Source of the DNA: a virus
Taxonomy: Duplodnaviria; Heunggongvirae; Uroviricota; Caudoviricetes
Length of the DNA stretch: 31,179 nucleotides
Virus record (IMG/VR): IMGVR_UViG_2609459857_000004
Span: 1 to 31,179 of that record
Strand: one strand, 5' to 3'
The notes beneath the pieces are model-generated. The model did not search any database. It worked only from the letters and a program-made list of their open reading frames with translations, and was not told the origin of the DNA. The position numbers were made by a program, and so were the translations under genes. Shown here one piece after another: positions 9,742 through 16,081 of the stretch; position 1 is the stretch's first letter, and each line of letters opens with the position of its first letter.

Positions 9742-9954
9742 ATGTTAAATACACAGAAAACCATTAATGCGGAAAAATATAACGAGTGGGTGAGGAAATT
9801 TTCTGAGCAGATTTTTAAAATTACTGGCGACGAGAATGCGGCAAAAAATGAATTAGAGCCGTGGACACCTGAAGGAGCCGACCCAAATTATTGCTGGTGG
9901 GATGTTGATCCAGTTGATGCTGCAAATGAAGCTATGAGTTATCACAACGATTAA
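9742..9954 (+). CDS. hypothetical small protein
   Basis: 70-aa ORF with GGAGG RBS 8 nt upstream of ATG. Confidence 0.45.
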   Translation: MLNTQKTINAEKYNEWVRKFSEQIFKITGDENAAKNELEPWTPEGADPNYCWWDVDPVDAANEAMSYHND

Positions 9955-10206: not shown

Positions 10207-10530
10207 ATGACCACTATTACCAGAGAAAACGCGGAGATTAAATCATTTATCACTGGTTTCCTGAGCGACCCGGCGCACGATATCCAATCTTCAGACAGCC
10301 TGCTTGCCAATGTGTTTCGTATCGCACTGGCATCGCTGGAAGCAGAGCCAGTGGCGTGGAAGGCAACCTTCACGCAAATTGACAATGAATATAATACGTT
10401 CACTGCTCTGTATTCTGACAAAGCAGAAGCCGAACGGTGGGTGCGACTGCATGAAATAGGTGACTTTCGGGCGGAAATAACACCGCTTTACGCAGCGCCG
10501 TCAGCGCCGGTAATTCCGGCTCTACGGTAG
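10207..10530 (+). CDS. hypothetical protein
   Basis: 107 aa from ATG 10207, two nt after the previous stop; AAGGAAAG RBS. Confidence 0.4.
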   Translation: MTTITRENAEIKSFITGFLSDPAHDIQSSDSLLANVFRIALASLEAEPVAWKATFTQIDNEYNTFTALYSDKAEAERWVRLHEIGDFRAEITPLYAAPSAPVIPALR

Positions 10531-10588
10531 GAATTGCGATGGCGGTGGCGCTGGTGGCGTATTCGATTTGCCGCTGGGGATAACAAAC

Positions 10589-10619
10589 AAAAACCCCGGA
10601 TTGATGGTCCGGGGTTTTG
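10589..10619. terminator. bidirectional rho-independent terminator between convergent transcription units
   Basis: A-run, 7-bp stem CCCCGGA/TCCGGGG with 7-nt loop, T-run; lies between the plus-strand block and the minus-strand antitoxin gene. Confidence 0.7.
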
Positions 10620-10639
10620 CTATTCATGGTGAATTTTTA

Positions 10640-10957
10640 TTAACAGATTGACTGAATTCCGTTTTTCTCAACCACAGAAAGCAAACGAAGGGCAGGGCCA
10701 CCAGGGCGCTTTATTCCCCTTTCCCAGTCTGAAATGAGGTTTTTACTGACATTAAGATATCTGGCGAAAACAGGTTGAGACAGATGCTCGCGCTCGCGAA
10801 GTGCCCGGATTCTTTCTGGCGACATTGTTGGCGCTGGTTGCAGACAAAGTTCATCAAACTCTCTCATAGTTTGTTTTGTTACTGCGCCAATATCCTGAAG
10901 TGACTCCATCATTTCATGTACGGATGCAAGCGCATCACTGCGGTAATTTTTACTCAT
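10640..10957 (-). CDS. higA: HigA-2-like antitoxin (C-terminal HTH)
   Basis: 105-aa ORF; C-terminal HTH (LSQPVFARYLNVSKNLISDWERG); ATG overlaps the toxin stop (ATGAGTAA), GGAGGT RBS inside the toxin 3' end; toxin-first gene order. Confidence 0.7.
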   Translation of the reverse strand: MSKNYRSDALASVHEMMESLQDIGAVTKQTMREFDELCLQPAPTMSPERIRALREREHLSQPVFARYLNVSKNLISDWERGIKRPGGPALRLLSVVEKNGIQSIC

Positions 10958-11333
10958 TGGGTACCTCCGTAAACTGACCCTGCAGGATCAATTGCGCCAG
11001 TTGTTCATCAGTAAGATTGAGAACGTGATGCGCAGCTTTTCGAAATGCGTTTTCCTCGATGGTTGTAATATTTTCTCTCTCATTCTTTGCGTACGCATAG
11101 ATGAAAAAAGCCTTTTCTGCGACGCGGTAAAAAATTATTGTCCTATAACCGCCTGATTTACCGCCACCTCTTCGGGCTAATCGCTGCTTAATGACACCAC
11201 TACCCAAATCTGCGGATATGAGTCCCTTATCAGCTAGTTCCACGACTTCTCGCAGAGCTTTATTGGAAATCCGATTTTTTCGTGCGAAGCGTTCAAACCA
11301 GGCATTTTTGAAAATGCGCATGTTTGGTTCCAT
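10950..11333 (-). CDS. higB: HigB-2 / RelE-like type II toxin
   Basis: Motifs GSGVIKQRLARRGGGKSGGYRTIIFY...FFIYAYAKNE match the recalled HigB-2 family pattern; start ambiguous (GTG 11360, ATG 11333, ATG 11321), none with a clear SD. Confidence 0.7.
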   Translation of the reverse strand: MEPNMRIFKNAWFERFARKNRISNKALREVVELADKGLISADLGSGVIKQRLARRGGGKSGGYRTIIFYRVAEKAFFIYAYAKNERENITTIEENAFRKAAHHVLNLTDEQLAQLILQGQFTEVPNE

Positions 11334-11423
11334 ATCGTTGTGTAATACATAGTGTGACACAATTAAATAGGATGGGCAATATACATACAGGGGGGCTTGC
11401 TAAGGGATGGCAGCTCAAAAAAC

Positions 11424-11439
11424 ACTCTATTTTTAGAGT
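11424..11439. promoter_or_regulatory. palindrome ACTCTA-TTTT-TAGAGT upstream of the toxin-antitoxin operon (candidate operator)
   Basis: Perfect 6-bp inverted repeat with 4-nt spacer, 65-90 bp upstream of the toxin start. Confidence 0.35.
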
Positions 11440-11563
11440 ATACAAATGACAGAAAGAAAAAGTCATTGTTTTTTCTCATGAAATACGCATTTTTGGGGAG
11501 TGAAATCGTTATTTGTAGTGGATATATTCCAGCCATGTTTTATCCAATACCAGAGGTTTTACA

Positions 11564-11776
11564 ATGCAGAAGTTGATCGCCGCGAATTGTAAGTACGCAG
11601 TTATTCGTTGTGACGATATGTCGGTTGTAGCTGAAATGGATTGTTTTCCGGATGGGGCCAGGGCTGTATGGCATCGAAAAGGGGGCATACTTAGGGTAAG
11701 AGCTTTGCGGCCTGATGAGCGAATTGTATCGAAAACAGTGCTCAGGGAGATCGTGTATCAGTTTATGCGGACTTGA
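11564..11776 (+). CDS. hypothetical small protein
   Basis: 70-aa ORF, AGAGG RBS upstream of ATG. Confidence 0.4.
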   Translation: MQKLIAANCKYAVIRCDDMSVVAEMDCFPDGARAVWHRKGGILRVRALRPDERIVSKTVLREIVYQFMRT

Positions 11777-15927: not shown

Positions 15928-16000
15928 GCCGATTTAACTTAGCAGACAAAGCAACTGACTTGTAATCACCGGGTCGCCAGTTCGATTCCGGTAATCGGCA
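15928..16000 (+). tRNA. tRNA-like gene, anticodon UGU (Thr) with weak D and anticodon stems (possible pseudo-tRNA)
   Basis: 7-bp acceptor stem GCCGATT/AATCGGC, T-loop TTCGATT, anticodon loop CTTGTAA at canonical positions 32-38; anticodon stem only 3 of 5 pairs; followed by CTA not CCA. Confidence 0.4.
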
Positions 16001-16006
16001 CTATAT

Positions 16007-16081
<75 letters not shown>

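Follow-up and report, generated by a model that had tools for sequence, protein, structure and literature searches.

The virus record IMGVR_UViG_2609459857_000004 (IMG/VR; Caudoviricetes) was analysed over its whole stretch of 31,179 nucleotides (nt), which we call the window, and our subject is a cassette of two overlapping minus-strand genes at 10640–11321 that encode a predicted toxin and antitoxin of the HigB2/HigA2 type. The host element is an Escherichia coli lambdoid (Rac/Qin-like) prophage, and the cassette is placed in its nin region. The RefSeq chromosome NZ_CP182387 is a 99.2% match to window positions 10400–11700, and its annotated order is integrase, excisionase, dicB, repressor/cro-like genes, replication genes, the minus-strand pair, DUF968, RusA, a tRNA cluster, lysis genes, terminase and portal. 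RefSeq lists the toxin as WP_001217946.1 (123 amino acids (aa), 372 nt; "type II toxin-antitoxin system RelE/ParE family toxin") and the antitoxin as WP_000042399.1, a generic "helix-turn-helix domain-containing protein". Two overlapping minus-strand open reading frames (ORFs) are present in the window, 10640–10957 (105 aa) and 10950–11360 (136 aa from a GTG), and the genes flanking them on either side are all on the plus strand, in agreement with a first-pass annotation of this DNA that had described a reverse-oriented pair in a plus-strand block. The features of the cassette and its upstream region are as follows.

10640–10957, minus strand: antitoxin gene, 105 aa, HigA2-like, in which an N-terminal extension of about 43 residues is followed by a C-terminal XRE helix-turn-helix (HTH; residues ~44–99)
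10950–11321, minus strand: toxin gene, 123 aa, HigB2-type member of the RelE superfamily (Pfam PF06296), with its start at ATG 11321
10964–10968, minus strand: antitoxin Shine-Dalgarno sequence GGAGG, read from the sequence, inside the toxin 3′ end and six nt before the antitoxin ATG
10590–10618, minus strand: intrinsic terminator hairpin called by a scan, AAAACCCCGGA-loop-TCCGGGGTTTT then TGTTTGTTAT, with 11 pairs, 6 of them G-C
11340–11360, minus strand: probable operator, an imperfect inverted repeat GTGTCACAC-TAT-GTATTACAC in which 7 of 9 positions pair
11374–11379, minus strand: candidate −35 hexamer TTGCCC, 16 nt upstream of the left half-site, its TTG kept in a four-allele alignment
11424–11439, no strand assigned: palindrome ACTCTA-TTTT-TAGAGT, pointed out in the first-pass annotation, overlapping the −10 of a distal promoter-like site

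The predicted toxin is a HigB2-type protein and a member of PF06296. In a hidden Markov model (HMM) search it matched the full model (positions 1–120 of 120) with 157.1 bits against a cut-off of 27, and the expect value (E) of 2.8e-46 places the predicted gene pair far beyond chance. A search of 5.8 billion proteins found 1447 relatives of 121–130 aa, and PF06296 is carried by all 120 of the homologues listed among them. The family has been reviewed as HigB2, a toxin-first, ribosome-dependent mRNA-cleaving ribonuclease (mRNase) with about 6,000 entries (Gerdes 2025 review, PMC11980606). The closest solved structures are HigB-2 chains, which were the only credible matches (E 1e-3 with the single sequence, 5e-5 with a family profile), and a 55-aa fragment of Vibrio cholerae HigB2 (VcHigB2), taken from the PDB alignment, scores above the PF06296 cut-off by itself. 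NCBIfam has no model for the toxin.

The first-pass annotation had regarded the toxin start as ambiguous. We place it at ATG 11321, because the Pfam model and all homologues begin at MRIF: the PF06296 match starts at residue 14 of the 136-aa ORF, and the N-terminus MRIFKNAWF (MRIFKNAWFERF) is found in all 24 aligned homologues and in the RefSeq protein. The GTG-initiated ORF 10950–11360 was rejected as the toxin on these grounds, and its GTG at 11360 sits inside the conserved inverted repeat. Alanine substitution of R51, R64, Y82 or K84 in VcHigB2 cuts activity by orders of magnitude (PMC5416850), and these residues align with R47, R60, Y77 and K79 of the window toxin. R47, R60, Y75 and K79 are invariant across the 24 homologues; position 77 is Tyr or Phe, often Phe, and the invariant Y75 lies two residues earlier on the same strand. 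A Gly/Lys-rich β2–β3 loop is common to both toxins.

The antitoxin gave a corresponding result in the HMM search that the first-pass annotation had proposed for both proteins. It matched the Pfam families HTH_3 (8e-8) and HTH_31 (1.3e-7), and its closest solved relatives are the HigA-2 chains 5jaa and 5j9i (9e-8), with residues 44–99 aligned to 38–93 of V. cholerae HigA2 (VcHigA2), which points to an XRE-type HTH. With best solved structures of HigB-2 and HigA-2 for the two proteins, the HigB-2/HigA-2-like identity first proposed for the pair is borne out. Among phage protein families the antitoxin matched phrog_2104 at 1e-40. Membership of MqsA or NadS was not accepted, since the NCBIfam HTH matches, such as MqsA, DicA and NadS, all fell below the cut-off. 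Residues 50–81 are almost invariant among the enteric alleles, and within the family the 43-residue N-terminal extension shows good conservation. Conservation across phyla is higher for the antitoxin than for the toxin, with a median identity to the window proteins of 70.8% vs 57.5% (80 genome loci, L014–L093), which is unusual for toxin-antitoxin pairs.

The arrangement of the two genes is that of a coupled operon. The end of the toxin gene shares 8 nt with the start of the antitoxin gene (ATGAGTAA, 10950–10957), and in 119 of 120 related loci the toxin has an antitoxin homologue directly after it, so the toxin-first order noted in the first reading stands. Upstream of the toxin we found only GGA (11331–11329), in line with the earlier remark that it lacks an obvious Shine-Dalgarno sequence. 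The toxin start is GTG, TTG or CTG in 44 of 69 unique family loci, and among 60 family loci 55 have an antitoxin start that lies within the end of the toxin gene and 54 a good Shine-Dalgarno sequence ahead of the antitoxin. These counts indicate that poor translation of the toxin, together with coupled and efficient translation of the antitoxin behind it, is typical of the family and not peculiar to the window copy. Downstream of the antitoxin, the hairpin at 10590–10618 had been described as a bidirectional terminator. This holds for the minus strand, where the 11 pairs lead into TGTTTGTTAT; in the plus-strand direction the stem has only TTTT after it and the scan made no call. The hairpin lies outside the conserved core of the cassette, and different hairpins occupy the same position in other alleles.

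Of the characterized systems, V. cholerae HigB2/HigA2 (VCA0468/0469; PDB 5JA8, 5JA9, 5JAA, 5J9I and 8A0X) is the one most like the window pair in kind. Both have a PF06296 toxin encoded first; the active-site Arg, Arg and Lys are kept, with a Tyr on the same strand and a basic, Gly-rich β2–β3 loop; the antitoxins are of similar size (105 aa in the window and 104 aa in V. cholerae), each extended at the N-terminus and with its XRE HTH at the C-terminal end; and in both the promoter has one inverted-repeat operator of about 19 bp, which in the window is a prediction. The window toxin differs from VcHigB2 in being 13 residues longer at its C-terminus, where a low-confidence AlphaFold 2 (AF2) model predicts two additional helical or strand elements. 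The operators also differ, TGTACGC-N5-GCGTACA in V. cholerae vs the ATAACAC-N3-GTGTTAT type of the window family, and the V. cholerae pair is set in a superintegron whereas the window pair is in a lambdoid prophage. Proteus vulgaris Rts1 HigB/HigA (PF05015) is likewise toxin-first, with a ribosome-dependent mRNase of the RelE superfamily and an HTH antitoxin, but it belongs to another Pfam family and has a different active-site layout and mode of neutralisation (PMC5416850); a Pfam search gave no match of the window toxin to PF05015. With RelE/RelB of E. coli K-12 the pair would have in common RelE-like active-site chemistry and A-site mRNA cleavage, judging by the structural work on VcHigB2 (PMC5416850), whereas RelE/RelB is antitoxin-first, RelE is in PF05016 (PMC11980606), and RelB has a ribbon-helix-helix fold instead of an XRE HTH.

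Taken together, we think it very probable that the cassette is a self-contained, reverse-oriented type II HigB2/HigA2 toxin-antitoxin operon in the nin region of an E. coli lambdoid prophage, with a mechanism that we model on the V. cholerae system. In such a mechanism free toxin would enter the ribosomal A site and cleave the mRNA being translated, and the N-terminal ~43 residues of the antitoxin would fold onto the toxin and neutralise it. An antitoxin dimer would bind the repeat at 11340–11360 via its HTH and repress the operon, and loss of the labile antitoxin could then free the toxin and lead to growth arrest.

Several observations weigh against so close a parallel. Identity to VcHigB2 over the toxin core is about 25%, with an alignment spanning only residues 40–92. 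The AF2 model of the toxin, built from the 24-sequence alignment, is poor (predicted local distance difference test, pLDDT, 63), with an order of secondary structures compatible with the RelE/BECR fold; its top Foldseek matches are HigB2 chains, and these are weak (E 0.018, probability 0.85, template modelling (TM) score 0.37–0.40). The counterpart of VcHigB2 Tyr82 is Phe in most family members, and the catalytic tyrosine may instead be Y75. The N-terminal extension of the antitoxin is of a length that would suit the disordered neutralising segment of HigA2-type antitoxins (about 35–40 residues), and between it and the neutralising segment of VcHigA2 there is no detectable sequence similarity. 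The base-contacting residues of VcHigA2, R68, E71, N72 and R77 in its recognition region (PMC11006873), are replaced by N73, S76, D77 and I82 in the window antitoxin, so that a different operator sequence is expected and the DNA specificity is not transferable. The −10 candidates of the proximal promoter are poor in the window allele (TCACAC or CACTAT). Finally, we found no experiment on the window pair or a close relative in the searchable literature, and queries on PF06296, DUF1044, COG4737 and HigB2 together with prophage turned up no study of the enteric prophage pair.

The module is found in 217 of 5426 complete E. coli genomes, always on the chromosome and in prophages, and its alleles fall into three groups: ≥99% identity in 10 genomes, ~84% in 173 genomes including O26, O103, O111 and O145 strains, and ~80% in 34 genomes including O104:H4. 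It is also present in 40 IMG/VR viral contigs, in phage PhiR12_3 and in Salmonella prophages. In every annotated context that was looked at, the module runs opposite to the genes around it and lies between the replication genes and DUF968/NinB/Q. The O104:H4, PhiR12_3 and Salmonella copies are homologous to the window only at 10652–11361, their backgrounds being otherwise different prophages, and this shared span of two genes and operator box defines the mobile unit. The first-pass annotation had called the module a moron. Its reverse orientation, its terminator, a promoter/operator box that moves with the genes and a slot that is otherwise filled in relatives, as with the different toxin-antitoxin pair of Stx phage ArgO145, all agree with that term, and an independent accessory unit with its own predicted promoter is a fair description of it.

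In related prophages, those of O26 and O104 among them, the same nin-region slot carries hokD (a type I toxin), a Doc-family toxin or ORF6N genes, and in ArgO145 it holds a different, antitoxin-first RelE/ParE-type pair, also in reverse orientation. The cassettes located in related prophages are:

L002 3731–3886, L003 2890–3938 and L011 3685–4196 (coordinates of the related loci): hokD, a Doc-family toxin or a different RelE/ParE-type pair in the nin-region slot

These cassettes resemble the window module in genomic position and accessory character, and differ from it in belonging to unrelated protein families, in the type I nature of hokD and in the antitoxin-first order of the ArgO145 pair. 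This suggests that the slot is a hotspot for swapping toxin cassettes. At its left edge, on the plus strand at 10524–10583, lies a stretch of about 60 nt, always left unannotated, that 1063 of 5426 E. coli genomes carry at 95–99% identity. Its copies in ArgO145 and in an O26 prophage code for a hydrophobic peptide of 27 aa, MTWPEAFTTVGIAMAVALVVYSICRWG, which is start/stop-coupled through ATGA to the upstream gene (compare L011 3477–3560 and L002 2553–2636), and copies differ mostly by synonymous or conservative changes. In the window copy the 5′ third is replaced, and only ...TVGIAMAVALVAYSICRWG followed by the stop codon is left in frame.

As to what the prophage gains from the cassette, our conjecture is stabilisation of the element or exclusion of other phages. 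One could go further and propose that the cassette is chiefly an anti-phage module for abortive infection or superinfection exclusion, in which an infecting phage stops host transcription or degrades the antitoxin and thereby sets the mRNase free. Such a proposal bears on the biological role and does not conflict with a HigB2/HigA2 mechanism, and it would suit a reverse-oriented accessory unit that is carried in the prophages of 217 E. coli genomes and whose slot holds hokD, a Doc-family toxin or the ArgO145 pair in relatives. Still, no model in PADLOC-DB v2 matched the toxin and the antitoxin had only generic HTH matches there, at 1e-5 or weaker; both PHROG families are annotated as "unknown function", and our literature searches gave no report of a defence phenotype for the PF06296 pairs of enteric prophages. 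We therefore see this role as possible and somewhat unlikely. A broader proposal, that the slot is a dedicated exchange site for HigBA2, other RelE/ParE pairs, Doc and HokD, that HigBA2 is a lysogen-expressed module of abortive infection or exclusion, and that the toxin frameshifts described below reflect the cost of carriage, is a speculation that we put forward as doubtful.

For the regulation of the operon two sites come into question. We favor the conserved inverted repeat at 11340–11360 as the probable antitoxin operator. Its core 7-3-7 unit (11342–11358) ends 18–20 nt before the toxin ATG and lies over the −10 region of the proximal promoter. The O26, O104:H4, PhiR12_3 and Salmonella alleles have counterparts of it, TGTAACAC-TAT-GTGTTATA and TGTAATAC-TAT-GTGTTACA, with unrelated sequence beyond them on the upstream side. 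The repeat forms the outer edge of the homology common to the alleles, across which the antitoxin recognition region is invariant. To ask how widely such repeats occur in the family, 7-3-7 repeats with at most one mismatch were counted by scripted enumeration within 100 nt upstream of the toxin in 77 unique loci from Proteobacteria, Acidobacteriota, Cyanobacteria and other phyla. They were present in 39 of the 77, compared with 8.4 ± 2.6 in shuffles (maximum 16), with the consensus ATAACAC-N3-GTGTTAT and therefore the half-site ATAACAC; 34 of the 39 start 31–54 nt before the start codon and the remaining five at −84 to −95. The footprinted VcHigA2 operator is a single inverted repeat, TGTACGC-N5-GCGTACA, that extends from just after the −35 over the −10 (PMC11006873), and the layout at 11340–11360 parallels it as a single inverted repeat across the promoter. 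Many family members show the geometry TTGnnn, 16–17 nt, TAAYAC in their upstream sequences, from which TTGCCC at 11379–11374 was picked as the candidate −35.

The other site is the palindrome ACTCTA-TTTT-TAGAGT, which the first-pass annotation had proposed as regulatory. It is indeed present at 11424–11439, and part of it lies in the −10 (TATACT, 11442–11437) of a distal promoter-like site that has ATGACT (11466–11461) as its −35 and scores 9 of 12. One could thus propose that the operon is transcribed from the distal site at 11466–11437 and that the antitoxin represses it through the palindrome, and the quality of this sigma-70-like site, whose −10 overlaps a perfect 6-4-6 palindrome, speaks for it, as do the poor −10 of the proximal promoter in the window allele and the retention of both distal hexamers in the O26 allele, where the −10 reads TACAAT. 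However, when the 242-nt AT-rich intergenic region is shuffled with its dinucleotides kept, 53% of the shuffles contain a perfect inverted repeat with 6-bp arms and a spacer of 0–10 nt, and the palindrome is lost in the 84%-identical O26 allele although the recognition region of its antitoxin is identical. The palindrome moreover lies outside the conserved core of the cassette and is unlike the family-wide half-site, and the O104:H4, PhiR12_3 and Salmonella alleles lack the whole distal segment in their upstream sequence. On this basis the palindrome was rejected as the main operator and its regulatory role was not upheld, and we regard transcription and repression from the distal site as improbable; the repeat at 11340–11360 remains our candidate. 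An inverted-repeat search with a minimum length of 12 gave no match, the arms here being only 6–9 bp. A second inverted repeat, AGAAAAA-N8-TTTTTCT at 11455–11476, covers the distal −35-like hexamer; it consists of low-complexity A/T runs, is partly kept in the O26 allele and is probably a chance match.

The toxin ORF of the window is intact and full length. Among 51 enteric copies, 17 carry a frameshifted toxin, at three different sites near codons 15–17, 32–33 and 95–96 (copies L003, L004, L010 and L117–L130), at least one of them at a G-run, and no fewer than 50 of the 51 encode a full-length antitoxin. Recurrent loss of the toxin frame with the antitoxin left intact is an indirect hint that the toxin is really toxic. 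That the pair is instead a decaying or inactive remnant, with a harmless toxin and an antitoxin kept as an orphan transcription factor, for example as an anti-addiction factor against related toxins, would accord with the frameshifted third of enteric copies and with the greater conservation of the antitoxin (70.8% vs 57.5%), but is very improbable given that the window toxin is complete and keeps every invariant and catalytic position and that an identical toxin protein is kept in at least 10 complete genomes and four IMG/VR contigs.

Three further observations concern the surroundings of the module. A 70-aa ORF on the plus strand at 11564–11776, between the toxin and the next annotated gene, matches phrog_1813 (E 3e-15); it matched no Pfam family and is not annotated in the 99%-identical RefSeq relative, and it is probably a real small phage gene. 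Two tRNA genes were called by Rfam on the plus strand at 15928–16078, downstream of a DNA methyltransferase gene, and match part of a cluster of four tRNAs in the annotation of the RefSeq relative; besides these two tRNAs, Rfam gave no RNA family for the module or its surroundings, all other matches being sub-threshold and due to chance. The closest RefSeq relative carries an IS1A insertion in the early region (L001 10298–10995, at about window position 9800), and the window is without this insertion.

The HigB2 family is already well understood and the toxin is annotated in RefSeq; the window pair is an intact member of this family in an E. coli prophage. The value of the finding lies mainly in annotation, namely of an intact HigB2/HigA2 member in ~4% of complete E. 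coli genomes, including O26, O103, O111, O145 and O104:H4 strains. By-products are a corrected toxin start, a predicted family-wide operator consensus, ATAACAC-N3-GTGTTAT, which indicates the DNA to use in binding assays, and a prophage slot that appears to gather different toxin cassettes and in which the toxin gene is often inactivated. If it were true that the cassette shields lysogens from other phages, the PF06296 pair would join the defence modules borne by prophages, which would be an incremental addition to them.

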